In this document: positions 290-18,340 of the stretch, one piece after another
How the letters are laid out: the number at the start of each line of letters is the position of its first letter
Position numbering within the stretch: the first letter of the stretch is position 1
Assembly (NCBI GenBank): GCA_035299225.1
Contig: DATGXB010000239.1
Location: 1 to 29,350, forward strand
Reading direction: 5' to 3'
From: Nostocaceae cyanobacterium
GTDB taxonomy: Bacteria > Cyanobacteriota > Cyanobacteriia > Cyanobacteriales > Nostocaceae
DNA length: 29,350 nt
Notes under the pieces: model-generated
The model's database searches: none
What the model saw: the letters and a program-made list of their open reading frames with translations, nothing else
What the model was told of the DNA's origin: nothing
Program-made: the position numbers and the translations under genes

Positions 290-799
290 TTAGCCATAAC
301 TTAAAGAACATTGAGATATGTCCGATTTAACACTACTCCTGAGTGATTTATTCATTAAATGTACAACTTGAATTCTGAAGGGACGTTTATAACTTAATCC
401 AATATAAATACCATTCTCAGCAGAAGGAACATAGAGAAGTGAACCCGCCTCAGATTTAAAAGAACGACTAAAACGATTTGCTAAATTAGTATTGTCTGCA
501 TCTGGTGCATCACTCAACCAATCTCCTAACTTTTCTTGATAATACAAGTATTTTTCTTGGCCATTACGTTCTCTCCGCACAATTCTAATAAATAATTCAT
601 TAGTTTTTTGCAATGTACCATCATCATTCAACGTAATTTGTCCAGAGATATCATAGATTAATCTTACCCCATTTTTTAAAGATGAAGTCGTTTGACAAGA
701 TATGGAAACATTTTCGTCAGCGTGGGCTGGAGTTGCTAGTAAACAACTGAGTAAAGCCAAAGGCAGGAATAATTTTTTCATCATCATTATGTACCTCAA
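290..799 (-). CDS. small exported protein, unknown function
   Basis: 169-codon ORF. The N-terminus ...MKKLFLPLALLSCLLATPAHA/DEN resembles a Sec signal peptide, and the true start is probably one of the internal Met codons near 781-787. Cys residues sit near both ends of the mature part. No family recognised. Confidence 0.5.
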   Translation of the reverse strand: MRYIMMMKKLFLPLALLSCLLATPAHADENVSISCQTTSSLKNGVRLIYDISGQITLNDDGTLQKTNELFIRIVRRERNGQEKYLYYQEKLGDWLSDAPDADNTNLANRFSRSFKSEAGSLLYVPSAENGIYIGLSYKRPFRIQVVHLMNKSLRSSVKSDISQCSLSYG

Positions 800-845
800 T
801 GTAATTATCTGGTTTCATCTTGTTCTCATATCAGATAGTTATTCT

Positions 846-1214
846 CTAATATGGTATTGGTCTAATAAAACTTTGATTAGCTCGGACATAACAAGAAGTT
901 TCATATTGATAGCCATTAGGTGAAACTGCTAACCAAGGCTTACCTCGTCTATCTCGTCTAATTAATGGTTCTCCACTTTGAGTGGGGGCTAAAAGTTTAT
1001 CATTATTATCAAACTTTTGGACAATACGATAGTTTGAACCAGGTCCACTACGACAGTTTAAACCTGTAGTATCAATCACTATCCAATATCGTGAGTTATA
1101 ATCATAGTAATCACCTTGGCGATTTGCTCTTGGCATTCCACTTTGAGCTAATACCACACTAGAAACTGTAGAAATTGAAGCAGTAATTAACGCCAAAGTT
1201 AAATATCTAAACAT
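846..1214 (-). CDS. exported bacterial SH3 (SH3b/SH3_3-like) domain protein
   Basis: Signal-peptide-like N-terminus MFRYLTLALITASISTVSSVVLA/QSG. The segment GLNCRSGPGSNYRIVQKFDNNDKL...GKPWLAV...GYQYETSCYV matches the LNxRSGPxxxYxV...W pattern of bacterial SH3 domains. Confidence 0.6.
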   Translation of the reverse strand: MFRYLTLALITASISTVSSVVLAQSGMPRANRQGDYYDYNSRYWIVIDTTGLNCRSGPGSNYRIVQKFDNNDKLLAPTQSGEPLIRRDRRGKPWLAVSPNGYQYETSCYVRANQSFIRPIPY

Positions 1215-1254
1215 ATAATCATCTCCGCAAAATTTGTCTTCATGATTTAAAATT

Positions 1255-1353
1255 AGTATGTGTAGGGTGGGCAGAGTAAAATTCTGAATACAAGAGGAAA
1301 ATTCTAGTAAATGCCCACCGACCTATTTTTCAATAATCAAATCGGAGTCCTAT
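1255..1353. repeat. dispersed inverted-repeat element (GGGTGGGCA ... TGCCCACC), copy 1
   Basis: The sequence agtatgtgtagGGTGGGCA...TGCCCACCgacctatttttcaataatcaaat has a second copy at 11102-11206 with the same flanks and a different loop. Confidence 0.6.
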
Positions 1354-1369
1354 AGTAAATACTTTGCAT

Positions 1370-1828
1370 TTATTGTGTTACTTCAAATGTATGCAGATAA
1401 TAACATTGTTGGTTAATAATAGTCTGACGACCACGTTTGACAATATACCTTCCTGAGTAGGGATCATTGAGAACAATTTTTTTATTAGGAGCACCGGAAA
1501 GAATTAACTGATGAACATCACCTTCCGAATCTTTCCATTGCATAACTACTCTATTTTTGCTTTGAAAATAAGCGCGTCCATTACCCAAAACTATATCTGG
1601 TTGTTTATCAGGTGTAGATTCGTGTAGGTTCTCAACCCCGCTATAAACAATATATTGTAGTTTTCCGCTTCGAGAACCATCTGTTTCTATCCGAAAATGT
1701 CTTGTAGTGCAAGCATAACGAACATCAAAAGTTATATTTGCTTTAGCTGGACTCTGAAGCCCAAAACTATAGATTGAAGAAACAGCTAAAAATAACAAGC
1801 CGGTACAAAGTTTTTGCAAGTTTTTCAT
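1370..1828 (-). CDS. small exported protein, tandem paralogue A (Cys...QQC family)
   Basis: I prefer the ATG at 1828 (MKNLQKLCTGLLFLAVSSIYSFGLQSPAKA/NIT, signal-peptide-like) over the longer ORF to 1912, which would overlap the upstream gene. It shares C-x3-[RH][FY]xIE, P-x-[IL][VI]L-x-NG and the C-terminal QQC with the ORF at 1836-2204. Confidence 0.55.
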   Translation of the reverse strand: MKNLQKLCTGLLFLAVSSIYSFGLQSPAKANITFDVRYACTTRHFRIETDGSRSGKLQYIVYSGVENLHESTPDKQPDIVLGNGRAYFQSKNRVVMQWKDSEGDVHQLILSGAPNKKIVLNDPYSGRYIVKRGRQTIINQQCYYLHTFEVTQ

Positions 1829-1835
1829 GGTGATT

Positions 1836-2204
1836 TTATTGACACTGTTGATAAAAAATTTGCTGCTTAGATTTGTAAATAGATAAATAAACTTCTCCTC
1901 CCCGTCCCTCAAATTTTTTAGCGACTACATAAGAATATTTGCCATTTTGAAAAGTAAAAAACTCGGCAATACGTCCATCTCTCCTGCTACCATTTCTTAA
2001 TATCAGACTAGGACTACTAGTAGAACCATCATAGGCAGTATAAGTATAATTATTTCTGACTGAGTTATGTTGAACTTCAATATAATAGCGGCCTGCTTTA
2101 CAACTAACTATTGTTTCCGATGCTTTGGCTTTAAGAGGGAAAAAGCTTAAACATAAACTAGCTGCTAAAAGTAGGGATGTTTGGAAAAATATCAGTTTTT
2201 TCAT
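1836..2204 (-). CDS. small exported protein, tandem paralogue B (Cys...QQC family)
   Basis: Signal-peptide-like N-terminus MKKLIFFQTSLLLAASLCLSFFPLKAKA/SET. The mature part has the same Cys-start and QQC-end layout as 1370-1828. Only 7 nt separate the two genes. Confidence 0.55.
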   Translation of the reverse strand: MKKLIFFQTSLLLAASLCLSFFPLKAKASETIVSCKAGRYYIEVQHNSVRNNYTYTAYDGSTSSPSLILRNGSRRDGRIAEFFTFQNGKYSYVVAKKFEGRGGEVYLSIYKSKQQIFYQQCQ

Positions 2205-2298
2205 ATTGGGAATTTCTTACTAAGTATTGCACTCTCATTAATAGTTGAAATTTTGTTGGGTCAATCTACAACTGACCCAATCTACTAAAACTATATTT

Positions 2299-2883
2299 TT
2301 ACAAACCATTAGTGTCGTTAAGTAGCCATCGTTGATCTGTACGTGAACCATTGTTGGCATTACGTCCAGAACGTTCACAATCCCAAAGTTGTAATTGTGC
2401 ACGATTATCCTGACCAGGTGCACCAGCTACATCAACACATTTTCCTGATAATGTATTAACAATAAATCCCCCGTGTAATTTCCATTGTTGGTCTGTACGT
2501 GAACCATTATCAGCATTACGTCCCGAACGTTCACAGTCCCAAAGTTGTAATTTTGCACCATTACTAATGCCAGGTGCACCGGATACATCAATACATTTTC
2601 CTGACAGAGAATTTATAATAAATCCGTCATTTGTTAAGATCCAAGTTTGGTCTGTACGTGAACCATTGCTAGTATTAACTCCAGAACGTTCACAATCCCA
2701 AAGTTGTAATTTTGCACCATTACCGTTGCCAGGTGCGCCAGCTACATCAATACATTTTCCTGATAGTGAATTGACTATAAAGGAATCTTCAGATCCGACT
2801 AAGCTTGCCTGACTAGTTCCTTGAAAAACAAGAGCAAGAACACTAAAACCAAATAACACAAAAAATTGATGTTGACGTTTCAT
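2299..2883 (-). CDS. exported ricin-type beta-trefoil lectin (three QxW subdomains)
   Basis: Signal peptide MKRQHQFFVLFGFSVLALVFQGTSQA, followed by three repeats of about 50 aa: SGKC[IV]DV[AS]GAPG...[AK][QK]LQLWDCERSG.N..NGSRTDQ[TQR]W. The QxW motif occurs once per repeat, as in ricin B / CBM13 lectins. Confidence 0.85.
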   Translation of the reverse strand: MKRQHQFFVLFGFSVLALVFQGTSQASLVGSEDSFIVNSLSGKCIDVAGAPGNGNGAKLQLWDCERSGVNTSNGSRTDQTWILTNDGFIINSLSGKCIDVSGAPGISNGAKLQLWDCERSGRNADNGSRTDQQWKLHGGFIVNTLSGKCVDVAGAPGQDNRAQLQLWDCERSGRNANNGSRTDQRWLLNDTNGL

Positions 2884-3043
2884 AGCTTACATCCTTTAAA
2901 AGCAACTGATATTCTGTAGAAATTACATTCTATCTGCAATAGCTTTACAAAAAAACATTAACTGAAATTTTGCTGGGTCAAGTCTAGTGCGACTCAACCT
3001 AGCAAAAATAAAACCGTGATTGGTAAAATCATGAGACTTATTT

Positions 3044-3529
3044 TTATCGGGGATACAATCCAATTCTTGCACCATTATTATAAGGACCAAAATAGTATTC
3101 TCTATTCTCAGGAATAGAGAATTTTGCTGATTGATATCCTGGCGCAAGATCATCATCAAAAGATACTACAGGATTACCATAATTCGTCCCTCCACAATCT
3201 CCCCCGGATGTTATTTGCGCTGTAAACCGCCAGCGTTCACCAGCAGGAATTGTGTAAGCATCATTATTAACTTGAAGTTTCACAGCAAAATTCATTGTAT
3301 TTTTAATATGAAACACTCTTTCTACTGGTTTTTCAAAAAAACAAGCTGTTGAGCCTCCATCTGAGTTATCTTCATCAGCAACGGGTACCCAAATACAGCG
3401 CTTACCTATGCCGGGTACTTTTGTGCAAACTTCTTTAGCGAAAGATTCACTCTGTGAGCCAAGAATAGCAACTAATGTTGAGCCAGCAATTATGGAAGCT
3501 AAAAGCAAGGGGGAAAAACGTGTAGTCAT
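3044..3529 (-). CDS. small exported protein, unknown function
   Basis: 161-codon ORF with N-terminus MTTRFSPLLLASIIAGSTLVAILGSQSESFA/KEV (signal-peptide-like). The mature part has four Cys. No family recognised. Confidence 0.5.
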   Translation of the reverse strand: MTTRFSPLLLASIIAGSTLVAILGSQSESFAKEVCTKVPGIGKRCIWVPVADEDNSDGGSTACFFEKPVERVFHIKNTMNFAVKLQVNNDAYTIPAGERWRFTAQITSGGDCGGTNYGNPVVSFDDDLAPGYQSAKFSIPENREYYFGPYNNGARIGLYPR

Positions 3530-3634
3530 AATTATTAATGCCCTTGAGAGTCAAAATTTAAGAATGTTGATTTGGTACTATCATCATCCAAAAAATTACT
3601 GAGAATGTATTGCTGAAAACTGTAATCTTGATTT

Positions 3635-3672
3635 CCGAAAAGTGAAATGTTTCCTTTACAAAACTATATACT
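3635..3672. repeat. 38-nt intergenic repeat, copy 1
   Basis: The sequence ccgaaaagtgaaatgtttcctttacaaaactatatact matches 4384-4421 at 37 of 38 positions. Confidence 0.8.
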
Positions 3673-3807
3673 TATATGTATTCAGTTTGCAGTACAAAAG
3701 CTACTTGATGATCAAGCGATCGCTATTTTGGCAAAAATTCAGCAAAGTGAGCGATCGCAAAATCAAATACCTTCTAGCAGTGGCCAGAGTGACCCATCCG
3801 GGTTTTA

Positions 3808-4158
3808 CTACTTTTTACAAAGCACGTAATCAAAAGTTAAACCACAAGTAGAGCAATACCACCATTTTCTATTAGCTACATCCCACTGCCAGGCACCAGT
3901 TTCAGACCCAAGGCTTCTAATTTCAAAATCTAGTGCATATCTATAGCCAACATATTTACAGTATGCATTTGCTCCTCTTTGTTGTGCATCAGCATCACCA
4001 CCATTTTCTCCTTTTCTAGCAACTTCTACTGGACCTCCTCTGACAAGAGGCTGTGAAAACGTCCGTTCTTCAGCTAAACCGATTTTAGCTGTTCCGATGA
4101 TGAAAGTAGTTGTTAAACCCACAACAGATAATAAGAAACCGGCTTTTTTTCTAATCAT
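3808..4158 (-). CDS. small exported Cys-containing protein, unknown function
   Basis: 116-codon ORF with N-terminus MIRKKAGFLLSVVGLTTTFIIGTAKIGLA/EER (signal-peptide-like). The mature part is Trp- and Cys-rich (WQWDVANRKWWYCSTCGLTFDYVLC). Confidence 0.5.
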   Translation of the reverse strand: MIRKKAGFLLSVVGLTTTFIIGTAKIGLAEERTFSQPLVRGGPVEVARKGENGGDADAQQRGANAYCKYVGYRYALDFEIRSLGSETGAWQWDVANRKWWYCSTCGLTFDYVLCKK

Positions 4159-4383
4159 TATAACCCCTCTAAATAGCTTAATTTTTGAGCCATGCTACAG
4201 CAGATTTCATCTAAAAGATGTACATAAATGCGGACAAGATGCCCACCACGTAAAAGTTTAATTACTCATGCGTGTAATTCATTCATTTATGCAAAATGCT
4301 ATAGGATGTTTGCTACATTTACTTGCAAAATGCTGTATGTAGGGTGTATTAAAACTACTATCAATAGCGGTAATCAATCATTA

Positions 4384-4421
4384 CCGAAAAGTGAAATGTT
4401 TCCTTTACAAAACTACATACT
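4384..4421. repeat. 38-nt intergenic repeat, copy 2
   Basis: The sequence ccgaaaagtgaaatgtttcctttacaaaactacatact abuts the stop codon of the CHAT gene. Its partner is at 3635-3672. Confidence 0.8.
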
Positions 4422-7258
4422 CACCGCCACTCACCCTGAAGCACAAAAGCTGCCCAATAATAAGGAGAACTCCATTCTGGTATCTGGGACATCTCCACTT
4501 GTGCTTGTCTCAAAGCTGCCGCAGGTGTTAACTTTTCCTGCAACAAACCACGATAAAATCGCTTCATTAATTCTGCTGTTGCTTGGTCGTCAACTTTCCA
4601 CAAACTCACTAGCACTCGTGTTGCACCTGCATACATAAACCCCCGTGTTAGTCCTATAATTCCTTCTCCTTTCACGTCCTGACCTTGGCCTGTTTGACAC
4701 GCACTTAAAACAACTAATTCTGCTGGTAAATGCAAATTAAAAATATCACGCAGTCGCAAAAAACCATTTTGGGGTATTCCTTGTTCATCTACTAAGGACA
4801 TGACAACCCCTGATAATTCTGGACGTACAGTATTTAGGATGCCATGAGTTGCAAAATGAATAATACGATATTGGGCTAAATTTGGATTAGTTGCACTGGT
4901 TTTATTGGCTTGGAAATCAAAAAAGTGAATCCTTTCTGTATCAGGAACTAAAGCTATAATTGCCTCTGCTTCCTTGCGTGTTCCCAAAAGCCGTGTTAAG
5001 TTTATCCGTGCATCTCGAAGAGAATCTGTTAATTCTACTTCTGTAATTGGCACATTTTCTAAATTGGGTATAATGCTATTATTAGTATTACCTGTATTAT
5101 TTTTTAGTCGTCTATCATTTTTCCCAAATACTGGGTCTGCTAGTACAGCGATAGTTTTCGGTGCAATTTGTCTTCCTTTGATTTGATTTCTTAATACAGC
5201 TAATGTTGATGCTGAAGGTAAATTAATAATCTCATGGTGTGTAATTAATGGTAAAAAACCTTTTTGATGTTTTGTTTCGGGAATTACCAAGGCACTAAAA
5301 GGTATTGTTTGTAAGCTGCCATCAGCAATAATCACTAATCTTTTGTTTTCTAATTGTTTAGCGACAGGTTTAAGTAAAATTTGGCTGAGAGTCTCTACCG
5401 CTAAAATATCTTTTTCTGGGCGGATTCTAATGGGTACTAATTCTTGTTGGTGAAAGCGTTGTACAAGTTTGTCAATATCTATTTGTTTTGGTAATTCATA
5501 ACTATGAATACTGGTTTTTGTCACTGCCCAAAGATAACTATTTTCTTCTCCTAATGAATATTCTAAAAGTAGTGTATTGTCATCTAGTAAAGTTGATTGA
5601 ATTTCGGATAAAGTGAGGGGTTGAGGTTGAGTAATAGCAGCATAGCTAGGATTGTTTTGTTTAATCTCTGCTGTGATTTCTTCATATTGTTGATAAAGTT
5701 GGAAAAGTTCCATTTCTGAAGCCATGACTTGTTCTGATGTAGCCTGGCTATTTAGTAGTTCTACTTGACGTTTTTCTAGTGCATCAATTTGTTTACTAAT
5801 TATATTTTCTTGTTGTAATAATTCTTTGTTAACACTATTGCGAATATCTACTTTAGCTTCTGCGAGTAATTCTAAAAGACTGCGGGCGCGGGAACGTTCG
5901 CTGGAGTGAAATGCTTTTGCGTCATATCCGGCGGATGGATAATTTTGATGCAATCTCATTAATAAGTCTATATAAAACTTGTATTTATTCTGGGTTGTAG
6001 AAAAAACCGCAGTGCGAAGATTTGAGCTATAAATACTATTTCGTAAGTCCTCAGTGAGTTTAATAGAAACTTCCATTTTTATTAGGGCTGCGGTCAGATT
6101 GTTTTGCTGACTTTCGATTTGAGCAATGTTATAAAGGTTATTAGCTTGGGCGAGGCGATCGCCTGTGGTTTGGGTAATGGATAATGATTGATTTAAAGCG
6201 CGTAATGCCTGCTGGTGTTGATTGATGGAGTTGTATAATAAACCCATCTCTCCTAATACAATAGCTTCATCAACTTTGTCACCTAATTCTTGATAGATTG
6301 ATACTGATTGATGATAAAAATTTAAGGCTTTTTGTGGCTCATTAAATGATGAATAAATTTCACCAAAATGGCGATAAACTCTAGCTAATTCTGAGCGATT
6401 ACCTAATTCTTGATAGATATTCTGCGCTGTAATTAATGCGTTGATTGCTAGTTCTTTTTTGCCTAAATTCTTATATACTTGACTAATATAAATATAAGCT
6501 CTTGCTTCTCCAGATTTGTAACCTGCTTGCTTGGCAACTTCTATGGCTTGTTGGTAATAATTAAGGGCTTGTTCATTATTGCCTAAACCGTAATAACCCC
6601 AAGCTATTTGGACTAAAATATTAGATTCTCCAGTGGAGTTGCCTGCTTTTTGATAAACTTGCAAAGCTTGTTGATAGAACTCCATGCCTTTTTCTTTAGC
6701 ACCTAAAAAGAAATAGTGAATCCAGCCCATATCAGAATAAGTTGAAGCAACTCCAGCTAAATCACCAAGTTGCTGATAAAGTCGCTGTGCAGCCTCTAAA
6801 GAATCTAAAACTTTTTGCCTTTCTCCAAACAAGTTATGAAGCATACCTAAATCTTGTAAAGTTCTAGCTTGTAAGGGAACTTCACCTAATTCTGTAAAAA
6901 TTGTTAATGCTTGGTTATAGGATGATAATGCTGGTTCTACCTCTCCTAAGAATTGATAAATCTTACCAATTTTTCTCAAAATTATTGCTGATTGTAACCG
7001 GGCTTGTTTGCTAGAATTTTCACTAACTATTAAAATTTTCAAATACTTAAGTGCTTCTAAATATTTTTCAATTGCCTGTCGTTTTGATACTGCTGTTCCT
7101 TGCTGGAAAAGTTTTTCGGCTTCTGCCACAGCTTTTTCAACTGGATGATAATTAGTATTAGCTTGAGTAATTACTAGTTGTTGAGGAGTGGCAAATACTG
7201 ACGCAGGTAATAAGAAAATCGTAATAAATAAGGTTAGCCCCAAGTGTAAGGTTTTCAT
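4421..7258 (-). CDS. exported TPR-repeat protein with C-terminal CHAT (caspase-fold peptidase) domain
   Basis: The ATG at 7258 gives MKTLHLGLTLFITIFLLPASVFA/TPQ (signal peptide); the ORF extends to a TTG at 7282. About 400 aa of TPR-like repeats (Y..ALxxxxxxG) are followed by a coiled-coil region. The C-terminus carries the IIHFATHG and VVLSACQTG His/Cys motifs typical of CHAT domains. Confidence 0.9.
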   Translation of the reverse strand: MKTLHLGLTLFITIFLLPASVFATPQQLVITQANTNYHPVEKAVAEAEKLFQQGTAVSKRQAIEKYLEALKYLKILIVSENSSKQARLQSAIILRKIGKIYQFLGEVEPALSSYNQALTIFTELGEVPLQARTLQDLGMLHNLFGERQKVLDSLEAAQRLYQQLGDLAGVASTYSDMGWIHYFFLGAKEKGMEFYQQALQVYQKAGNSTGESNILVQIAWGYYGLGNNEQALNYYQQAIEVAKQAGYKSGEARAYIYISQVYKNLGKKELAINALITAQNIYQELGNRSELARVYRHFGEIYSSFNEPQKALNFYHQSVSIYQELGDKVDEAIVLGEMGLLYNSINQHQQALRALNQSLSITQTTGDRLAQANNLYNIAQIESQQNNLTAALIKMEVSIKLTEDLRNSIYSSNLRTAVFSTTQNKYKFYIDLLMRLHQNYPSAGYDAKAFHSSERSRARSLLELLAEAKVDIRNSVNKELLQQENIISKQIDALEKRQVELLNSQATSEQVMASEMELFQLYQQYEEITAEIKQNNPSYAAITQPQPLTLSEIQSTLLDDNTLLLEYSLGEENSYLWAVTKTSIHSYELPKQIDIDKLVQRFHQQELVPIRIRPEKDILAVETLSQILLKPVAKQLENKRLVIIADGSLQTIPFSALVIPETKHQKGFLPLITHHEIINLPSASTLAVLRNQIKGRQIAPKTIAVLADPVFGKNDRRLKNNTGNTNNSIIPNLENVPITEVELTDSLRDARINLTRLLGTRKEAEAIIALVPDTERIHFFDFQANKTSATNPNLAQYRIIHFATHGILNTVRPELSGVVMSLVDEQGIPQNGFLRLRDIFNLHLPAELVVLSACQTGQGQDVKGEGIIGLTRGFMYAGATRVLVSLWKVDDQATAELMKRFYRGLLQEKLTPAAALRQAQVEMSQIPEWSSPYYWAAFVLQGEWR

Positions 7259-7432
7259 ATTAAGAAATATTGAATAAAGCAATCTTGGTAAAAATTATCT
7301 CTTCAGTTTTAATTAACCACAGATAAGCACAGATAAATAATAAGTTTTTGCAAAGAATATAACATGACAATATTTAGGTGAGGGAAGGGGGTATTACTTC
7401 CGTAGTCACAGGGTGAGAATGGCAGAATGATG

Positions 7433-8131
7433 TTATCTGTGCGGGGGTATTGTTGATGAAGGGGTTGATGTAGTTGGGGGTTCTACTGTTTCTAAGGCAG
7501 CTAAATCATTTAACAAGCTATAAATAACATCTTTTTGTCCTAATCGTAGAGCTTCACCTAGTGCGTCATACCATAAGCCAGCAGCCGCTAAAATATTGAT
7601 ATTAGTACGACTATTACGGACAAGAAACACCCGTTTAGGCATTTTCACTACCTCTATTTCTGCCATTGCAAATAAATCATTAGCTGGTTGATTAGGGTTA
7701 CACAAAATGATGACTTGCCATAGATATCTTTTACCCACCTCCAAACCAGGTTTATTTTTAGGTAAGGTTAAAGTCATGATGCCATATTGACTTTGCATTT
7801 GCACCTGTTGTTGTATTTGAGGTTCACGGTTAAGATTGTATTTATACAGCCTAAATTCCATTGGTAAGGGTTTGGAGTCGGGAACAAACCAAGCAAAAGT
7901 AGGATGAGTAGAAGTAGTTTGCCCAACATGATTTTGAGGTGCTAGAAGTTGTAAAGATATTTCTCCGTTTGTTTCACATCCTCCCCTACCACCTGTAGTT
8001 GTTGTGCGAGTGGTGGGTGGACGTTGACCGCGTGGGGGTTTATATTCGGCTCTCGCAACAGTGGTTGAAGCTAAGATTAAGCTAGTAATACCAATAGTGA
8101 CTAGCTGGCAAAATTTATAGTTTTTTATCAT
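7433..8131 (-). CDS. exported DUF928-like protein
   Basis: Signal peptide MIKNYKFCQLVTIGITSLILASTTVARA/EYKPP. It has an Arg/Thr/Gly-rich segment (PPRGQRPPTTRTTTTGGRGGCE) and then HPTFAWFVP...EFRLY. This matches my memory of the DUF928 family found next to CHAT/CHASE2 genes in cyanobacteria, but I could not verify it by search. Confidence 0.65.
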   Translation of the reverse strand: MIKNYKFCQLVTIGITSLILASTTVARAEYKPPRGQRPPTTRTTTTGGRGGCETNGEISLQLLAPQNHVGQTTSTHPTFAWFVPDSKPLPMEFRLYKYNLNREPQIQQQVQMQSQYGIMTLTLPKNKPGLEVGKRYLWQVIILCNPNQPANDLFAMAEIEVVKMPKRVFLVRNSRTNINILAAAGLWYDALGEALRLGQKDVIYSLLNDLAALETVEPPTTSTPSSTIPPHR

Positions 8132-8290
8132 AATCTGGTTAAATTTTTAATTTCTAGATCAAGGGACGGACTTATATACAAATAAGTTCAGGCTTTTTTT
8201 GGGTATTTAATGGGTAAGTTAGGTAAGCGATCGCACTATCAGAATTTGGCAGTTTAATATTAAGCTAGAATTGGTTGTTATGTTGATTTT

Positions 8291-10162
8291 TTACTTTTGG
8301 CCAAACTTTGGTACAGGCCAGGTTAATTCACAAATTGTACCTTGAGTGGGTAAAGGCGATCGCCTAAATTTTCCTTTCAACTGTCGAGCTAAATTTTGAG
8401 CTTGTTGTGTTCCTCTCCCTTCTAACCCAAAGTCTACACTTTGCCCATTATCTGTAATTCTCAATGTATACCAGTCTTTTTGACAGGTACAGATAACATT
8501 TAAGCGAGTGACACCAATAGCATATTTCCCGACATTACACAAAGCTTCTTCTAAAAATCGGCATAATCCCCGCTTTTGCTCAATTGTTAAGTGCTGGGGT
8601 TCAATAGGTTCAAAACTGCGGACTTTGATTTTGAGGGTTTTAAAACAGGGAAAATCTCGCTCTAAGGTTTTAGTATAAACTTCATAAAGAAGCTCATGAA
8701 TTGGTGTTTTTAAATCAAATTCTATACTTTTTCCTAAATAAATACTCTCATTTTGAGTTAAGGTTTCCCACTTCATATACTCATAAACCGCCCGTAATTC
8801 TTGATTGAGGTGTTCCAATTGGGAAACGAGTTCAGAAGCTGGTAAATCCTCTTCTCTAGCGTTTCTGATCAGGTGGGAAAGAGTTTGTAATGGTCCGTTG
8901 TGAACGGTATCAAATGTATGTTCAATAATTTGTTGTCGTTCTTGAATTTGTAACTTCAAATTGCGGTCATATTGATAAAAAGCCGCTAAACCAATACCAT
9001 TAAAAACTAAACCGAATAAGGCTGGTATTACTGGTATCCACCAACCCCAAAATATGGATAAATAGCTAACTATAATCAGTCCAACACTAGCAACACTAAT
9101 GAGCAAAACATTCTTGCCAGGAGAGGAAATCAAGCGACTACAAATAATCCCGACTATGCCCCAAGTAAATATCCATAAATATTCCCAGCTATCTGCCCAA
9201 GTTTGCAAAAGGGGTCGTTTTTCTTGTACTGCACTGATAATCTGACTCACGGCATGAGCTTGAATTTCTACTCCATAAATTTGCCCAGGGCTAGGATTTT
9301 CAGAGGGAACAGCAGATGTATTAATAATATCTTTTGCACTAGGGGCAGTCATGCCAATAATCACAATGCGATCGCGCAACCAACTAGAATCAAATTCACC
9401 GCTTTTAATCTGCTTCAATGACAGGGTGCGAAATCGTGAGCGACCACTGCGGAAATTAATTAATGTTTGTAATCCGCCTGCATCAGCATTTACATATCCC
9501 CCAGAATTTGGTACAAAGCGGGGTAATTCAGTATTACCAAATCTCATTGTATCTAAATCTTTAATTCCATTATCCAGATTAATACCTTCCGGTGCTAAAT
9601 AAGCTTTAGCTAAAAGTATAGACAAAGAAAATCTGTATCCTTTATCAGTTTGTGTTGACAACAAACTGCGCCTTAAATGACTGTCTGCATCCAATATCCC
9701 ATCAGCAAAACCAACTTGTTCTGATGGTAATCCTGCTGGTGGTTCAATGGTATCTATGACAACTTTATCAATAGCAATTAGGTTTTTAAAACTGCCAAAT
9801 ACAGATAATAATTCATAATAACCAGGCTCAACAGGTAAATTTCTGATAATATCCAGACCAATAACTCTAGGTTTATGTGCTTGCAATTTAATCAACAATT
9901 CTGCTAAATCTATATCTGGTACTGGATGCCTACCTATACTTTCGAGGTCTTCTTCATTAATCCCAACAATTGTAATTCGTTCATCAATAGATTCTTCAGG
10001 ACGTAACCGCAGAAAGTTATCTAAAGCTTGCCATTCTAAGTATTGTAAATATCCAGTTAAACGGGTTAAGATGACCAAGCCAATCACGATAATTCCTGGT
10101 AGTATTTCTACTAGCCAATTAGCCATTACCGCTTTTATTTTTACCCCAGTTTTAGTTTTCAA
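8291..10162 (-). CDS. CHASE2-domain sensor histidine kinase (HisKA_3-type, NarL-partner class)
   Basis: An N-terminal TM helix precedes a CHASE2-like extracytoplasmic region (ITIVGINEEDL...HPVPDIDLAELLIKLQAHKPRVIGLDI). Three to four TM helices follow, then the H-box region HTFDTVHNGPLQTL and an ATPase-like C-terminus (ITDNGQS...GRGTQQ). The start is uncertain: TTG at 10162 or ATG at 10126. Confidence 0.85.
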   Translation of the reverse strand: MKTKTGVKIKAVMANWLVEILPGIIVIGLVILTRLTGYLQYLEWQALDNFLRLRPEESIDERITIVGINEEDLESIGRHPVPDIDLAELLIKLQAHKPRVIGLDIIRNLPVEPGYYELLSVFGSFKNLIAIDKVVIDTIEPPAGLPSEQVGFADGILDADSHLRRSLLSTQTDKGYRFSLSILLAKAYLAPEGINLDNGIKDLDTMRFGNTELPRFVPNSGGYVNADAGGLQTLINFRSGRSRFRTLSLKQIKSGEFDSSWLRDRIVIIGMTAPSAKDIINTSAVPSENPSPGQIYGVEIQAHAVSQIISAVQEKRPLLQTWADSWEYLWIFTWGIVGIICSRLISSPGKNVLLISVASVGLIIVSYLSIFWGWWIPVIPALFGLVFNGIGLAAFYQYDRNLKLQIQERQQIIEHTFDTVHNGPLQTLSHLIRNAREEDLPASELVSQLEHLNQELRAVYEYMKWETLTQNESIYLGKSIEFDLKTPIHELLYEVYTKTLERDFPCFKTLKIKVRSFEPIEPQHLTIEQKRGLCRFLEEALCNVGKYAIGVTRLNVICTCQKDWYTLRITDNGQSVDFGLEGRGTQQAQNLARQLKGKFRRSPLPTQGTICELTWPVPKFGQK

Positions 10163-10166
10163 CTTC

Positions 10167-10844
10167 TTAATCTATTAATCCTTCTTCTCTAGCTCTTTTT
10201 TCAGTTTGAATGCGAATATTTTTCCCTTCTTCGGGATAAACCCATAATACATCCTGTACTTTAGTCCAGTAGTGCCTTACCATCCGTTCAGATACGTGCA
10301 TCCGTTCAGCGATCGCTTTATCTTGTAATCCTTCTTCAAATGCTAAACTTAGTAGAGTCAGCCATTCTGGTTTTACTTCTAATCCAGCTTGTACAGCTTT
10401 AATGTCTCTTGTATAAGTCAGTCCCCGTAATGCCCAGTCAAGCCGGATTAATATTTCTTTACGAGCCAGACTTTTATCAGCAACAACAAATCCCCCTTTA
10501 TGAGAATCAATATTAGGTATAGTTCTAGCTAAAGCTTTAATGTAGGTACTTTGCACCATGAGATTAAGAGTAGGATAATTTTTCATTATGTTTTTTAACA
10601 ATTGAATACCTATTTCAGCTTTTGCAAATTCTCCAGCCTTTTCTGGGATAGAAAGATCCATAACCACAAGATCCGGTTTGACATTTTCTATTTGTTCAAT
10701 AGCTATCTGTGCCGTTTGTGCGGTAAAAATTGCACTTTCTGGATACTGCTGTTTTAATAAATTCAGTGTTCCATCTAGCAATAATTCATGATCATCAATT
10801 ACAACAAATCTTAGTTTAACTGGTTTTGGTAAATCTTGGTTCAT
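10167..10844 (-). CDS. response regulator, receiver + LuxR/NarL-type HTH
   Basis: Receiver motifs VVIDDHELL and DLVVMDLSIPE are present. The C-terminus has the HTH LQDKAIAERMHVSERMVRHYWTKV. I prefer the ATG at 10844 (MNQDLPKPVKLRF) over the TTG at 10877. The stop lies 4 nt upstream of the kinase ORF. Confidence 0.85.
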   Translation of the reverse strand: MNQDLPKPVKLRFVVIDDHELLLDGTLNLLKQQYPESAIFTAQTAQIAIEQIENVKPDLVVMDLSIPEKAGEFAKAEIGIQLLKNIMKNYPTLNLMVQSTYIKALARTIPNIDSHKGGFVVADKSLARKEILIRLDWALRGLTYTRDIKAVQAGLEVKPEWLTLLSLAFEEGLQDKAIAERMHVSERMVRHYWTKVQDVLWVYPEEGKNIRIQTEKRAREEGLID

Positions 10845-10895
10845 TGTCGGTTTATAAATAAATATTAAGGGGGACAAGTTGAAGCATTACAAATA

Positions 10896-10998
10896 CAGCA
10901 GGGAACAGGGAACAGGGAACAGGGAACAGGATTGAAAGTCTCTTTGTATAAAGGTTTGTTCCCAAAATTTGTACCTCATTTACCTGAAACGGGCTGTA
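10896..10998 (-). repeat. 103-nt dispersed element ending in (CTGTTCC)x4, copy 1
   Basis: The reverse complement matches 27544-27646 at 98 of 103 positions by manual alignment. The element ends 51 nt upstream of the response-regulator ATG, in the same orientation as that gene. Confidence 0.85.
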
Positions 10999-11232: not shown

Positions 11233-11874
11233 TTACTTCAATTGTTGCCATCGCACAATATAAACCGGAACTCGTACCCAAAGATTATTTTGATCAGGTG
11301 CTTTAACTGTAATTACTTTTTTCTCCCCTGGATCAGCTTCAATCCAAATATTATTACCAATATATCCTAAAGTATGAATACCATCTTGAGTCACAGCAAT
11401 ATCTCCTGTTTTAATCTGAGAATGGTCTAACTCATTAATACTATTAGCCGCTAAAATTCTTTGAGTTTTATTGCGATAACCTGCCCCTAAAGTTTCAGCA
11501 GAAGCATCAAACCACCAAATAGAAAAACCCTCTCTAATTAACTTTGGATTCAGAGAAATTAACCCATATTTAAAATTAGCATTTACTAATGCTTGTCTCA
11601 CCAAACCTGAACAGTCAATCCCAACCCTATTTTCTCCACCCCAAACGTATTGAGTGCCGGTAAAAGCTTGCATTTCGGCAATATAATAATTTCTGAGTGT
11701 TATTGTGTCGGGTGTATGACCTGGTAAAATGATAATTAAACCCAGAATCAAAGTAATAAATAAAGTAAAAAAACGGGCGTTGCTGATTTTGGGGATGAAA
11801 ACAATTTTGCATACATTGAAAACCCTTGTAGAGACGTTCCATGGAACGTCTCTACACTCAAAAACATCCCGCAC
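11233..11874 (-). CDS. NlpC/P60 (C40) family cell-wall peptidase
   Basis: The motif YVWGGENRVGIDCSGLVRQAL (catalytic Cys) is present, with a downstream His (DGIHTLGYIG). The N-terminus has a TM-like helix FFTLFITLILGLIIILPG. The only start in frame is a GTG at 11874, inside or adjacent to a palindromic repeat, so the true N-terminus is doubtful. Confidence 0.75.
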   Translation of the reverse strand: MRDVFECRDVPWNVSTRVFNVCKIVFIPKISNARFFTLFITLILGLIIILPGHTPDTITLRNYYIAEMQAFTGTQYVWGGENRVGIDCSGLVRQALVNANFKYGLISLNPKLIREGFSIWWFDASAETLGAGYRNKTQRILAANSINELDHSQIKTGDIAVTQDGIHTLGYIGNNIWIEADPGEKKVITVKAPDQNNLWVRVPVYIVRWQQLK

Positions 11875-13230: not shown

Positions 13231-13878
13231 ATGGTTAACTCTCCACCGATTATAGAAACAGTCCTTACCGATGAATGGGTGAAAGTAACTTGGGAAGACT
13301 TTCTGACTTTTGCCGACGATCCAAGTTTAAGTAATGGTAAATTTTATTTTGATGAAGGCTATATGATGATTGAAATATCTCCCCTTGGTTCAGCACATGG
13401 ACAAGTTCATTCAATAATTGCCAATTTAATTATTTTGTATGCTGCTATTAAAAACATTCCCATTAAAAGTTTAATTAATACCAGTTTTAGAAAATTTGGA
13501 ATTAGGGGATGTCAGCCAGATATCGCCTTTTATATTGGAGATAATTGCACTTTACCACCTTGGAATAATGCACCTGTAGATTTAGATCGGATAGATGCAC
13601 CCAGTTTAGTCATAGAAATTGCCTCCTATTCCTTAGAAGATGATTGTAGTCGTAAACAAAAACTTTATCAACGTTTGGGGGTGAAAGAATATTGGGTAAT
13701 TGATGTGAATAAAATGCGAGTTATAGCTAATAATTTTATGATTAAAGAAGGTAGTTTAATTACTGAATCCAAGGTTTTACCAGGATTAGAAATGAAGTTA
13801 ATAGAGTTAGTTTTACAAAAGTCACAAACTGAAGATGATAGTACAATCAATAGATGGTTGTTAGCAAAATTTAGTTAG
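13231..13878 (+). CDS. Uma2-family (DUF820) restriction-endonuclease-fold protein
   Basis: The motifs CQPDIAFY and PSLVIEIASYSLEDDCSRKQKLYQRLGVKEYWVIDV fit the D...E.K plus Y..GV.EYW.[IV]D signature of Uma2 proteins, which are abundant in cyanobacteria. Confidence 0.8.
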   Translation: MVNSPPIIETVLTDEWVKVTWEDFLTFADDPSLSNGKFYFDEGYMMIEISPLGSAHGQVHSIIANLIILYAAIKNIPIKSLINTSFRKFGIRGCQPDIAFYIGDNCTLPPWNNAPVDLDRIDAPSLVIEIASYSLEDDCSRKQKLYQRLGVKEYWVIDVNKMRVIANNFMIKEGSLITESKVLPGLEMKLIELVLQKSQTEDDSTINRWLLAKFS

Positions 13879-13887
13879 GGTTTATTC

Positions 13888-14487
13888 ATGTCAACTTTAA
13901 CAAATGCTTTAGATAGGATTTTCAATTGGTTGCAAAACCACAAACCGGAATTTTCAACCAGTTTTTTACCAGGGTTAACTTTAGCAGAAATAGAAGAAAA
14001 ATTACAAGCTTTACCGTTTCGTCTACCTCAAGAAGTTTATGATTTATATCAGTGGCGAAATGGAATGCAAAATGATGAAATGATTTTTGTTTATCACTAT
14101 TTTTTAACTTTAGATCAAGCGATAGAGTTGGCGTTAATGTATCCTGATAATTATGGTTTAAATAGTGATTTCTTTAAACAACATCGCCAAGCAGAAGGCT
14201 ATCCAAGTTATGTTTTTCCTTTATTTGAATTTGAAGGAGAATATTTTGCTGTTGGTGCAAATACCACAGAGTTAGAAACTTATCCTGTATTTCATATTCA
14301 TCACGGTGAAACTTTCGCTTTTACCAGTTTAACTAATATGATTTTGACTATCGCCGAATGTTATGAAACAGGAGTTTATACAACTACACCTGATGGTGAT
14401 TTTGAATTAGATTATCAACAGTTTGGTGCTATTCGGCGTAAATATAATCCAGGTGCAGCAGAATTGATTTATGCTGATGAGAAATAG
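13888..14487 (+). CDS. SMI1/KNR4 (SUKH-1) family protein
   Basis: The N-terminal pattern LPGLTLAEIEEKLQALPFRLPQEVYDLYQWRNGM is typical of SMI1/KNR4 domains. The gene starts 9 nt after the Uma2 gene. Confidence 0.6.
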   Translation: MSTLTNALDRIFNWLQNHKPEFSTSFLPGLTLAEIEEKLQALPFRLPQEVYDLYQWRNGMQNDEMIFVYHYFLTLDQAIELALMYPDNYGLNSDFFKQHRQAEGYPSYVFPLFEFEGEYFAVGANTTELETYPVFHIHHGETFAFTSLTNMILTIAECYETGVYTTTPDGDFELDYQQFGAIRRKYNPGAAELIYADEK

Positions 14488-14523
14488 AGTAAAATTTGAT
14501 TTGCTCAATTTCCACCAACTTTT

Positions 14524-14581
14524 AACCTTTAAGGTAGAAGTTCCGAGCTTTAGGGTAGATCGTTCAACCTTTAAGGTAGAA
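14524..14581 (+). promoter_or_regulatory. three direct repeats CTTTARGGTAGA phased at exactly 21 bp
   Basis: The repeats are aacctttaaggtagaa (14524-14539), agctttagggtagat (14546-14560) and aacctttaaggtagaa (14566-14581). They lie 35-90 nt upstream of the predicted -35 box. Confidence 0.4.
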
Positions 14582-14614
14582 CAATATACCTTATCCCCCT
14601 CATCTCCTCAAGCT

Positions 14615-14643
14615 TTGACGACGGGAATAATTTACAGTATAAA
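14615..14643 (+). promoter_or_regulatory. sigma70-type promoter candidate TTGACG-N17-TATAAA
   Basis: TTGACG at 14615-14620, a 17-nt spacer and TATAAA at 14638-14643. A GGTGGGAG Shine-Dalgarno-like run lies just before the ATG at 14684. Confidence 0.5.
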
Positions 14644-14683
14644 GATATGCATCAAGCAAAATCAGATCGGGTGAGGTGGGAGC

Positions 14684-15082
14684 ATGGACCCTTTGAGTGC
14701 TGGAGCAGTAGCATTTTCAGCCTGGTTATTTAATAAAATCATTGACTGGACAGCCGAAAAAGCCTTAGATGCTGGTGCATCAGGTGTATTACAGTTAATC
14801 AAAAGCAAGTTACCGACGGCTAAAGTGGTGGAAATGGCTGCATTACCACCCAGTCAGCGAGAGGACATTGGGGAAGCGGTTTTAATTGAAGAGGTGAAAC
14901 AAGCAGCAGCGCAAGATGAAGAAGTGCGAAAAGCTGTAGAAGATTTAGGGAATGATGTTCAAGAAGCGGCAAAAACCAACCCTCAACTACAGGGAAGCTT
15001 CAACACTTATTATCAAAACTGTAAAGGCATTGTTGGCAGCAATACTTTTAACAACTCCACTATAAATATTACTAACAATTGA
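14684..15082 (+). CDS. helical N-terminal module of the downstream STAND NTPase (Bell/effector-like), ending at an in-frame TGA
   Basis: A good promoter and SD precede the ATG. The first helix is hydrophobic/amphipathic (MDPLSAGAVAFSAWLFNKIIDW), followed by an acidic helical region and an N/Q/G/S-rich tail. The frame is the same as that of the NB-ARC ORF. Confidence 0.6.
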   Translation: MDPLSAGAVAFSAWLFNKIIDWTAEKALDAGASGVLQLIKSKLPTAKVVEMAALPPSQREDIGEAVLIEEVKQAAAQDEEVRKAVEDLGNDVQEAAKTNPQLQGSFNTYYQNCKGIVGSNTFNNSTINITNN

Positions 15083-15181
15083 CTGGACTCGTCTGGACGG
15101 GGTACGGACAAAGTTAACACCCCCAGTAATTTTAGTTTTCCCGGTACTCCTCACTTTGTCGGTCGAGAGAGGGAGTTAGAA

Positions 15182-17488
15182 TTGCTGCATGAAAAATTAC
15201 AGACACCTGGCTCTGTGGCTATTTCCGCAGTCGCGGGGATGGGTGGAGTCGGGAAAACTGAGTTAGCAATCAAATACATTAAACTGCATCAAGACCAATA
15301 TCCAGGGGGGGTGTGTTGGTTTAATGCCAGAGAACAGAGTTTAGGGGTTGAAGTGGTGCAGTTTGCCCAGTTATACATGAATTTGCAAGTCCCGCAGCAG
15401 AACTTCCGAGGAGAACAGTTAAGTTTAACGGAACAGGTGGCTTGGTGTTGGCAACATTGGCAACCACCGCAAGGACTGGTATTAGTAATTTTAGATGATG
15501 TCACCGATCTAGAATATTGTCGAGATTTACTACCCCAAACCAACCGCTTTCGGGTGGTGATGACTACCAGACTACGCCATCTCGACACCAACATTGAGGA
15601 AATACCTCTAAATGTGCTATCTGAGGGAGAAGCATTACAGTTATTGACGGCTTTAGTGGGTGAGAAAGTCCAACGGGAAGCGGAAACAGCGAAAGAGTTG
15701 TGTAATTGGTTGGGATATTTGCCATTAGGTTTAGAATTGGTGGGACGGTATTTAGCCAAGAAACCCCGATGGACATTAGCCAAAATGTTAGAACGGCTAA
15801 AAGCCCAAACAGTAGAAGATGAAGCGCTGAACCCGGAACTGTTCAAGACTTTGAGTACAGCCCAAAGGGGAGTAAAAGCGGCTTTTGAGTTAAGTTGGCT
15901 AGAACTTGCACCCATAACCCAGCGAGTAGGGGAGTTATTGAGCCTGTTTGCTTTAAGTGTCTTTGCTTGGGAGTGGGTAGAAGCAGCGAGTAATTTACTG
16001 AGTTGGGCTGCTGAGGATGTGGAAACAGCCAACGAGCAACTTTATGAGCGCCATTTAATTAATCTTGGGGATGAGATAGGAGAGTATTGGCAAATACATC
16101 CTTTAATTCGGGAGTTTTTCGGGTTAAAGTTGCGGGAAAGAGAACAAGCGCAGGAAGTGAAAAAGGCTTTTGCTGCCGTGTTTGTGGAGATTGCTGAAAC
16201 TATTCCTGAGTCAATAACTCTAGAGGTTGTGAAGTCGGTAGAAAGGGCGATTCCCCATTTAGAAAGAGTGGCGGAAAATTTAATTGATGTTGTGAGTGAT
16301 GATAATTTAATTTGGGTATTTTCAGGTTTAGGTAAATTTTATCAAGGACAAGGATTTTATACGTCGGCAAAAACTTGGCTTGAGCAATTTGTGCCAGTTG
16401 TAGAAAAGCGTTTGGGACATGAACATCTTCATGTTTCTGTAAGTTATAGCAATTTAGCATCACTCTACAGAGATTATGGCAAGTATACGGAAGCTGAACT
16501 GTTCTCAGTTAAGGCATTACAACTAATTGAAAACCTACTAGGAAAAGAGAATCTCATTGCTGCTACCAGTTATAATAATTTAGCAGAAATCTACAAATCT
16601 CAAGGTAAATATAAGGAAGCTGAACCACTTTATATCAAAGCATTACAACTAAGAGAACACCTGCTGGGGCAAAAACATCATCATGTTGCTTTAAGTTACA
16701 ATAATTTGGCGGCGCTTTACGAATCCCAAGGTAAATACAAGGAAGCTGAACCACTTTATATCAAAGCATTACAAATGTTTGAATGCTTGCTAGGACAGAA
16801 ACATCCTGATGTTGCTACTGGTTACAATAATTTAGGACTACTCTATTATTTTCAAGGTAAATACAAAGAAGCTGAACAACTCTGTCTCAAAGCATTGCAA
16901 CTGAGAGAACTTTTATTAGGTCATGAACATCCTGATGTTGCTGACAGTTACGATAATTTAGCAGAACTTTACAAATACCAAGGTAAATACAAAGAAGCTG
17001 AACAATTCTGTTTCAAAGCATTGCAACTGAGAGAACTTTTATTGGGTCAGGAACATCCTAATATTGCTTTAAGTTACAACAATTTGGCATTAATCTACAA
17101 GCTACAAAACAAGTACAAGGAAGCTGAACCACTATATCTCCGAGCATTGCAACTGAAGGAACGCCTACTAGGAAATCAACATCCTGATGTTGCTTTAAGT
17201 TACAACAACTTGGCAGGGCTTTACGAATCTCAAGGCAGGTACAGGGAAGCTGAATCATTTTATCTTCAAGCATTGCAATTAAAGGAAAACTCTCTTGAAC
17301 AAGGACATCCTTCTATTGCTGCTAGTTACAGCAATTTGGCATTTCTCTACTCATTACAAGGCAGGTACACGGAAGCAGAACCACTTTTTGTCAAAGCTTT
17401 AGAAATTGCTGAACGCAGTTTAGGGGTAAATCATCCCAATACAAATGCTGTCCGTAACAATCTCCAACGGGTGCGCGAGATGTTGTAG
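15182..17488 (+). CDS. NB-ARC (AP-ATPase/STAND) NTPase with C-terminal TPR array
   Basis: Motifs present are Walker A GMGGVGKT, Walker B LVLVILDDV, MTTR and the GLPLA-like GYLPLGLELVG. About nine 42-aa TPR units follow (YNNLAxLYxSQGKYKEAEPLYxKALQL). The frame is open upstream to 15083 and there encodes the conserved PHFVGRERELELL, so the TTG at 15182 is not the ancestral start. Confidence 0.85.
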   Translation: MLHEKLQTPGSVAISAVAGMGGVGKTELAIKYIKLHQDQYPGGVCWFNAREQSLGVEVVQFAQLYMNLQVPQQNFRGEQLSLTEQVAWCWQHWQPPQGLVLVILDDVTDLEYCRDLLPQTNRFRVVMTTRLRHLDTNIEEIPLNVLSEGEALQLLTALVGEKVQREAETAKELCNWLGYLPLGLELVGRYLAKKPRWTLAKMLERLKAQTVEDEALNPELFKTLSTAQRGVKAAFELSWLELAPITQRVGELLSLFALSVFAWEWVEAASNLLSWAAEDVETANEQLYERHLINLGDEIGEYWQIHPLIREFFGLKLREREQAQEVKKAFAAVFVEIAETIPESITLEVVKSVERAIPHLERVAENLIDVVSDDNLIWVFSGLGKFYQGQGFYTSAKTWLEQFVPVVEKRLGHEHLHVSVSYSNLASLYRDYGKYTEAELFSVKALQLIENLLGKENLIAATSYNNLAEIYKSQGKYKEAEPLYIKALQLREHLLGQKHHHVALSYNNLAALYESQGKYKEAEPLYIKALQMFECLLGQKHPDVATGYNNLGLLYYFQGKYKEAEQLCLKALQLRELLLGHEHPDVADSYDNLAELYKYQGKYKEAEQFCFKALQLRELLLGQEHPNIALSYNNLALIYKLQNKYKEAEPLYLRALQLKERLLGNQHPDVALSYNNLAGLYESQGRYREAESFYLQALQLKENSLEQGHPSIAASYSNLAFLYSLQGRYTEAEPLFVKALEIAERSLGVNHPNTNAVRNNLQRVREML

Positions 17489-17500
17489 GAATGAGGGGTA

Positions 17501-17537
17501 GAATCAGGATTTACAGGATTTAAGGATTTTCAGGATG
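17501..17537. repeat. CAGGATTT-type short tandem repeat block, copy A
   Basis: The sequence gaatcaggatttacaggatttaaggattttcaggatg begins 12 nt after the NB-ARC/TPR stop. Near-identical blocks occur at 18341-18380 and 19019-19059. Confidence 0.8.
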
Positions 17538-18337: not shown

Positions 18338-18340
18338 CTG

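Follow-up and report, generated by a model that had tools for sequence, protein, structure and literature searches.

The window analyzed here is a 29,350-nucleotide stretch from a Nostocaceae cyanobacterium (contig DATGXB010000239.1). Its minus strand carries four neighboring genes, encoding a NarL-class response regulator, a CHASE2 sensor histidine kinase, a DUF928 protein, and a protein that couples a TPR array to a CHAT peptidase domain. The four constitute a genuine envelope module that is conserved widely and has apparently not been described before. Predictions place the DUF928 protein, the TPR-CHAT protein, and the CHASE2 domain of the kinase beyond the cytoplasmic membrane. A first-pass annotation of the window, made from the letters alone, had joined the four genes to seven small secreted proteins in a single eleven-gene system. 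Its open reading frame positions and main domains (TPR plus CHAT, DUF928, CHASE2, receiver, and ricin-type lectin) agree with the open reading frame list and with Pfam.

Conservation was evaluated in 80 genome loci, each extending 10 kb to either side of a DUF928 homolog and together representing the best 80 of 441 DUF928 matches. The set covers about 30 cyanobacterial genera, although many of the loci, being from related Nostocales, do not count as independent. Sources include heterocystous Nostocales and the Calothrix/Rivularia and Scytonema/Fischerella types; Coleofasciculaceae, Microcoleus, Moorena, Symploca, Floridaenema, and Leptolyngbyaceae; and Chroococcidiopsidales, Xenococcaceae, Microcystaceae, and Acaryochloris. 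Open reading frames from these loci were queried with twelve window proteins and clustered all-against-all.

A CHASE2 kinase ortholog lies upstream of DUF928, on the same strand, in 60 of the 67 loci with at least 4 kb of upstream sequence, and the regulator is upstream in 56 of the 67. Downstream, a CHAT ortholog is present in 54 of the 67 loci with at least 3.5 kb on that side, with a median gap of 106 bp. Both kinase and CHAT are present in 47 of the 59 loci for which both flanks are available; the remainder have the kinase only (7/59), CHAT only (4/59), or neither (1/59). The association of CHAT, DUF928, and CHASE2 genes, which the first-pass annotation had put forward, is thus strongly confirmed. 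Cultured strains that carry the module include Chlorogloeopsis fritschii PCC 6912, Calothrix sp. PCC 7716, Dulcicalothrix desertica PCC 7102, and Moorena producens 3L.

Gene order within this association is flexible. Of 54 loci, 49 have CHAT facing DUF928 in convergent orientation and only five have it co-directional (L002, L003, L004, L007, and L066), a layout shared by the window. Insertions between the kinase and DUF928 genes reach 9.7 kb, and the flanking genes vary widely from locus to locus. Because the flanks change, CHAT inverts, and large segments intervene, linkage of the quartet is evidently kept through rearrangement rather than as frozen synteny. The fully co-directional arrangement of eleven genes is peculiar to a small subclade. 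(A variant layout occurs in L025, L046, L054, and L058, from Floridaenema and Phormidium: two tandem DUF928 genes sit between two TpsA exoprotein genes, accompanied by a pentapeptide-repeat protein and a co-directional CHAT gene, with no CHASE2 kinase within 10 kb.)

The regulator gene occupies 10167–10844 and encodes 225 residues from an ATG codon (MNQDLPK); the open reading frame reaches a TTG at 10877. This frame matches Pfam Response_reg (E=4.7e-9), and the protein aligns end to end, LuxR-type helix-turn-helix included, with DevR/DosR (3c3w, E=3.6e-8). The best NCBIfam matches are NarL-class regulators; Pfam GerE is not reported at E<0.01. Across 58 orthologs, residues D28, D29, D74, and K135 are invariant and S110 is conserved.

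The kinase gene (8291–10126) encodes 611 residues from an ATG, within an open reading frame that reaches a TTG at 10162. The protein comprises a first transmembrane segment, a periplasmic CHASE2 domain, three further transmembrane segments, a HisKA_3-like H-box, and an ATPase domain. The CHASE2 match (PF05226, E=1.8e-61) spans profile positions 2–257 of 257, the HATPase_c match is weak, and HisKA_3 is not reported by Pfam. The ATPase domain is closest to those of VraS, DevS, and DosT, all HisKA_3-class kinases (E=0.005). Residues H421 (in IHNGPLQTL), N543, D571, G573, and G584, which define the H, N, G1, and G2 boxes, are invariant in 60 orthologs. The invariant phosphotransfer residues, the DevR alignment, and the VraS/DevS/DosT match together indicate an intact two-component pair of the NarL/HisKA_3 class; a two-component pair with a NarL-type regulator had been proposed.

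Hydrophobic segments in the kinase fall at residues 17–36, 327–345, 352–372, and 376–396. With one such segment before CHASE2 and three after it, the sensor domain is predicted to be outside and the kinase core inside, in agreement with the extracytoplasmic location first assigned to it. The spacing between the regulator and kinase genes depends on the start codon: the 4-nucleotide gap first described is obtained with the TTG at 10162, whereas the ATG at 10126, chosen by public gene callers, leaves about 40 nucleotides.

Two observations concern the region upstream of the regulator gene. In 38 of the 80 loci (for example, L014:5452–6162), though not in the window, the gene immediately upstream of that for the regulator encodes a protein of about 236 residues, here termed c5. 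It has no Pfam or NCBIfam match, and carries arginine at the position of the H-box histidine (IRDGLLQ versus IHNGPLQ). The protein may be a pseudo-kinase partner. It is collinear with the kinase catalytic core, but its identification as a degenerate kinase core failed, with a non-significant hhalign score (E=0.34). In the window itself, the sequence just upstream of the regulator gene, at 10899–10930, consists of 4.6 perfect tandem copies of the heptamer CAGGGAA (TTCCCTG on the minus strand). It resembles STRR sequences, the short tandem heptamer repeats of heterocystous cyanobacteria.

The DUF928 gene (7433–8131) encodes a predicted secreted protein (PF06051, E=1.2e-34). The family has 319 homologs at E<=1e-5, and every named one is cyanobacterial. 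From its amino terminus, the protein contains a signal peptide; a proline-rich tail; a flexible loop with R49-G50 and C52; a β-sandwich (residues 60–165); and a three-helix bundle (174–215). The tail, directly past the predicted cleavage site, is conserved as Y-x-P-P-x-D-Q-x-P-P...T-x-S-T-G-x-R-G-G-C. R49-G50 is invariant in the family, which also has two near-invariant cysteines. An AlphaFold2 model built from a 96-sequence alignment has a mean predicted local distance difference test (pLDDT) score of 83: tail residues 31–40 score 85, the loop that bears R49-G50 (41–50) is of low confidence, and the β-sandwich is confident. No sequence relative was found in the PDB. An RGG tripeptide is present in the invariant DUF928 loop (R49-G50-G51) and also in four of the 16 small secreted proteins encoded behind co-directional CHAT genes: window proteins p116 (residue 40) and p122 (residue 101), L003:15429–15797, and L004:14667–15293.

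The TPR-CHAT gene (4421–7258, listed as an open reading frame at 4421–7282) encodes a predicted exported caspase-fold cysteine protease of 945 residues, with signal peptide MKTLHLGLTLFITIFLLPASVFA/TPQQ. Pfam identifies four TPR_12 matches followed by CHAT (PF12770, E=3.7e-71; profile positions 5–289 of 289). The histidine and cysteine motifs noted in the first-pass annotation, IIHFATHG and LSACQTG, are indeed kept: all 51 module orthologs have H809, H813, and C862, and the sole cysteine of the window protein is the predicted catalytic one. Attempts to map this dyad onto a solved structure gave no template: phmmer against the PDB returned TPR proteins only, a 29-sequence CHAT-domain profile matched no PDB chain, and a single-sequence AlphaFold model of the domain had a pLDDT of 36.

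Nearly all module CHAT orthologs (50/51) carry a basic amino terminus that leads into a strongly hydrophobic segment, which in the window subclade is a clean signal peptide (...SVFA/TPQQ). A non-module CHAT protein in L061 has no hydrophobic amino terminus. The module protein is therefore predicted to be exported or anchored outward rather than cytoplasmic, as was first supposed. More generally, nine of the eleven products have signal-peptide-like amino termini, the number given in the annotation, as judged by our own heuristic: an n-region with lysine or arginine, a hydrophobic core (10-residue Kyte-Doolittle mean >=2.18), and an AXA-like site. The mature parts of the nine signal-peptide products have even cysteine counts, from 2 to 6.

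The module habitually lies beside secretion cargo whose type shifts with lineage. A TpsA exoprotein (Pfam TPS domain) is encoded in 33 of the 80 loci, in 25 of which it is transcribed divergently from CHAT; TpsB (ShlB/POTRA_2) is present in ten. In 22 Nostocales loci the region upstream of the regulator instead contains co-directional genes for CTB bacteriocins, a C39 ATP-binding cassette (ABC) transporter, and HlyD. Arrays of GG-leader peptides (NCBIfam CTB-family bacteriocin) are located about 1–5.5 kb upstream of the regulator, co-directional with the regulator, kinase, and DUF928 genes, in L008–L010, L017–L020, L023, L026, L028–L032, L035, L039, L047, L048, L050, and L075. One or the other type of neighbor, TpsA or bacteriocin exporter, is found in 54 of the 80 loci, and the window, L003, and L004 have runs of small secreted proteins.

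These features suggest a model for the quartet as a four-gene envelope signaling module, in which the state of DUF928 and CHAT modulates the CHASE2 kinase and the regulon includes both the module and its cargo. We consider this model plausible, if somewhat short of probable. DUF928 would be the periplasmic partner of the CHAT protease, because TPR arrays bind extended peptides and DUF928 offers both an extended tail and an exposed Arg-Gly loop. The likeliest contact would be through this conserved amino-terminal tail and loop, which the TPR array would recognize and deliver to the CHAT active site. (Caspase-fold relatives, including metacaspases, separase, and gingipains, cleave after basic residues.) The state of the pair, with DUF928 intact, bound, or cleaved, would then modulate the kinase and hence the regulator. 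Its targets would probably be the module itself along with neighboring secretion cargo, interchangeable by lineage: TpsA/TpsB exoproteins; CTB bacteriocins with their C39-ABC/HlyD exporter; or small Sec-secreted lectin-like and cysteine-containing proteins. A fully specified version, in which CHAT binds the DUF928 tail and cuts the Arg-Gly loop, DUF928 (intact or cleaved) is the CHASE2 ligand, and the regulator turns on interchangeable "social" cargo, is improbable.

Mechanistic analogies are provided by CpxP/DegP/CpxA in Escherichia coli and ExoR/ExoS-ChvI in Sinorhizobium, both of which place a secreted accessory protein and a periplasmic protease beside a membrane kinase and its regulator. 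ExoR is a periplasmic TPR/Sel1-repeat protein under proteolytic control. These systems have no sequence relationship to the module, which has a CHASE2 sensor, a TPR-fused CHAT domain, and a DUF928 accessory protein. The quartet would be a two-component system whose periplasmic control combines an accessory protein with proteolysis; it does not embody a new principle.

An independent link between the two domain types comes from cyanobacterial caspase-fold peptidases fused to CHASE2, which have been catalogued previously (PMC2853523, PMC8195603). In those orthocaspases and metacaspases the p20 peptidase is fused to the receptor and presumably intracellular, whereas in the module CHAT is a separate and predicted exported protein.

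Several points weigh against the signaling model. Its mechanism is drawn from synteny and predicted location. The quartet is separable, since seven loci have kinase and DUF928 without CHAT and four have DUF928 and CHAT without the kinase; from these partial combinations, DUF928 would appear able to work with either partner. The convergent orientation of CHAT in most loci means that it is not co-transcribed with DUF928. More distant DUF928 paralogs, beyond the best 80 of 441 matches, may sit in other contexts. The signal peptides were called by a home-made heuristic in place of SignalP, and in the convergent class the CHAT amino terminus may be an uncleaved anchor. No function for DUF928 follows from its fold, for which Foldseek gives only generic matches (immunoglobulin, macroglobulin, and carbohydrate-binding-module-like; E~1e-3, TM-score ~0.3). 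The RGG tripeptide also fails as a shared cleavage motif: four occurrences were observed against 1.16 expected, a post hoc P of 0.03 that makes it a lead only. Finally, Pfam detects neither TpsA/TpsB nor a bacteriocin exporter among the window open reading frames.

The main rival, which we judge somewhat unlikely, is that DUF928 and CHAT act in exoprotein maturation. They would process, release, or quality-control neighboring secreted proteins (TpsA in most lineages, the small secreted proteins in the window), while CHASE2 and the regulator would only adjust transcription to some unrelated cue from outside and sense no proteolytic product. An established precedent is LapG/LapD/LapA in Pseudomonas, in which a periplasmic cysteine protease acts on a giant surface adhesin under transmembrane signaling control. 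TpsA is the most frequent extra neighbor of the module, and its divergence from CHAT in 25 loci suggests a shared control region; moreover, four loci have DUF928, CHAT, and TpsA without a kinase. The resemblance to LapG has limits: LapG has a DUF920 transglutaminase-like fold, LapD is a receptor for cyclic di-GMP rather than a kinase, and LapA is a type I secretion substrate. The distribution of neighbors also fits poorly. The window, L002, and L007 carry the quartet with neither TpsA nor TpsB within reach, the 22 Nostocales loci have bacteriocin exporters instead, the seven loci with kinase and DUF928 lack the protease, and no cleavage motif is common to TpsA and the small proteins. The data do not separate this explanation from the signaling model.

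The bacteriocin loci invite a further comparison, to ComAB/ComCDE and Pln-type bacteriocin loci, since in the 22 Nostocales loci the CTB, C39-ABC, and HlyD genes are upstream of and co-directional with the regulator and kinase. However, the sensor of the module kinase is CHASE2 and not a polytopic domain for peptide sensing, those systems have nothing corresponding to DUF928 or CHAT, and the window has no exporter.

The full model of the first-pass annotation treats all eleven genes as one unit, with CHAT processing DUF928 or the small proteins, CHASE2 sensing the product, and the regulator controlling the secreted repertoire. The evidence on the seven small genes makes this decidedly doubtful. 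From the CHAT gene outward, also on the minus strand, these encode p116, a 4-cysteine protein (3808–4158); p161, a 4-cysteine protein of a rare family, with no Pfam or NCBIfam match (3044–3529); a ricin-B (β-trefoil) lectin (2299–2883; Pfam Ricin_B_lectin, E=7.9e-21); p122, a 2-cysteine orphan (1836–2204); p153, a 2-cysteine protein listed as a 180-residue open reading frame from a TTG at 1912 (1370–1831); a protein with a sub-threshold SH3_3 match (846–1214; E=2.3e-4); and a protein of about 165 residues with no family assignment in Pfam or NCBIfam (290–787). (Start-codon revision accounts for the shorter lengths given here: CHAT to 945 residues, the regulator to 225, and the 180-residue frame to 153.)

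Superficially, the eleven genes do resemble a unit: all are co-directional with short gaps, and the window has seven small signal-peptide open reading frames in 4 kb, compared with a mean of 0.46 per locus of about 20 kb under the same heuristic across the 80 loci. Runs of such genes occur only in the window (7), L003 (6), and L004 (2–3), in the latter two after a co-directional CHAT gene. Lectin-type folds recur among them: ricin-B in the window, DM9 in a sister strain, and VOMI in L004. There is also a weak resemblance of p116 to L003:14862–15257 (E=0.008), for one hand-picked pair.

Homology tells against the eleven-gene unit. None of the seven small proteins has a homolog in the 80 loci; phmmer, then --max to E=50, across a search space of 4070 open reading frames from 81 loci, returned only noise. 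The sets from the window, L003, and L004 are mutually non-homologous. The nearest genomes that share this layout, L002 and L007, have NB-ARC/STAND genes and a transposase behind CHAT.

A sister contig, L083, is 98% identical to the window over the 3' end of CHAT and 95% over p161-ricin-p122-p153. In place of p116, it has an unrelated gene for a secreted DM9-domain protein (window 3725–4387 versus L083 1403–2148). Among 5.8 billion proteins p116 has one homolog, 84% identical, in Scytonema sp. UIC 10036. That copy adjoins genes for a D5_N/DUF3854 primase, a helix-turn-helix protein, and RVT_3, a mobile-element-like context, with no module genes on the contig. DNA similarity to Scytonema is confined to the p116 gene (window 3769–4221, 85% identical). 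A replacement between strains 95–98% identical, along with similarity limited to one gene, suggests single-gene mobility. Since p116 is replaced in L083 and found elsewhere without the module, and the small genes have no homologs in the 80 loci, the array is a hot spot with strain-level turnover, and its products are strain-specific cargo rather than a conserved part of the module. Lack of conservation of the small genes beside the core is an outcome that the annotation had itself named as refuting.

Details of the array were also revised. The so-called SH3b protein has only a partial SH3_3 match, 21.7 bits against a Pfam cut-off of 27. The supposed tandem paralogs p153 and p122 are possible paralogs at most, with no statistical support (BLASTP E=0.5; shuffle z=2.3). 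Of the three proteins called orphans, p122 deserves the name, its sole match being a 96% identical sister-strain copy; p161 does not, since it is present in L083 and 21 of 1.84 billion representatives match it at E<=1e-3. Within the ricin-B gene, a 159-bp tandem repeat in 2.9 copies (81% matches) yields three repeats at 2317–2781. Because the repeats are still 81% identical in DNA, the β-trefoil presumably results from recent internal triplication or is under homogenization.

Regulatory signals likewise give the eleven-gene unit no help. A near-perfect palindrome, GAACTTAT-N6-ATAAGTCC in the minus-strand reading, lies at 8168–8189, about 35 nucleotides upstream of the DUF928 ATG, and is a candidate operator or promoter element. 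The block in which it lies is shared with L002 and L003 and, in part, with L007; the palindrome was not found outside the window subclade. In the window it is unique at 0–1 mismatches, and matches at <=3 mismatches are no more frequent than chance. It is the only candidate operator identified, and was considered as a shared operator for the small genes, but does not recur upstream of them. Elsewhere, a weak hairpin lies between CHAT and p116, promoter-like and terminator-like matches in the window occur at chance level, and neither Rfam matches nor tRNA genes were found.

Finally, it is very improbable that the quartet reflects mere inherited linkage, given that the association outlasts rearrangement across orders while the flanks change, or that it is a conflict or cell-death system with TPR-CHAT as a caspase-like effector (as in Craspase and systems of the Aravind type): conflict systems of cyanobacteria often contain CHAT and caspase domains (PMC8195603), and NB-ARC-TPR, ParE, Uma2, and SUKH-1 genes are nearby in the window, but the predicted export of module CHAT (unlike a cytoplasmic effector, and unlike the non-module CHAT of L061), the absence of cas genes among the window open reading frames, and the lack of specific PADLOC 2.0 matches (generic TPR and receiver-domain matches only) all disfavor it. 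The comparison with Craspase is nonetheless instructive as to architecture. Csx29, of the type III-E CRISPR Craspase, likewise has a TPR array followed by CHAT with a His/Cys dyad, and its TPRs recognize a partner. However, Csx29 is cytoplasmic and is activated by gRAMP/Cas7-11 with target RNA, whereas the window protein has a predicted Sec signal peptide and no cas neighbors. Pfam gives no cas-type match on any window open reading frame, and the PADLOC match to the protein is to generic TPR.

Beyond the module, the minus-strand series, unbroken from 290 to 10877, continues to a gene at 11233–11874, so the run of eleven consecutive genes described at first pass stands as to position and extends further than was then thought. 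This additional gene, upstream of the regulator, encodes an NlpC/P60 cell-wall peptidase with an amino-terminal membrane anchor, and has no homolog in the 80 loci, even when every HMMER filter is disabled. Farther along, plus-strand genes at 13231–20016 make up an accessory, conflict-type cluster: a Uma2 endonuclease; a SUKH-1 (SMI1_KNR4) immunity-type protein; an NB-ARC-TPR STAND protein (15182–17488); XisH/XisI; and a ParE toxin with a small open reading frame upstream. NB-ARC/NACHT proteins come after CHAT in L002 and L007 too.

The searchable literature contains no description of the quartet, nor does any paper in it bring together CHASE2 and "CHAT domain" or CHAT and two-partner secretion. 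Exported proteases of the CHAT (caspase-fold) type have apparently not been studied. DUF928 is mentioned in a single paper, as an incidental CHASE2 neighbor in Nostoc punctiforme; the same paper describes an acid-stress response of sll1891.

To our knowledge, DUF928 is uncharacterized, and CHASE2, a widespread sensor domain, has had no known ligand since 2003. The quartet, conserved across about 30 genera, now provides a concrete candidate for what CHASE2 senses. Its scope is narrower than first drawn: the run of seven small secreted genes is fast-turnover, strain-specific cargo, outside the machine itself. Moreover, the presence of the module in cultured strains makes the hypothesis directly testable. 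The quartet may also mark a point at which cyanobacterial exoproteins and bacteriocins are controlled.

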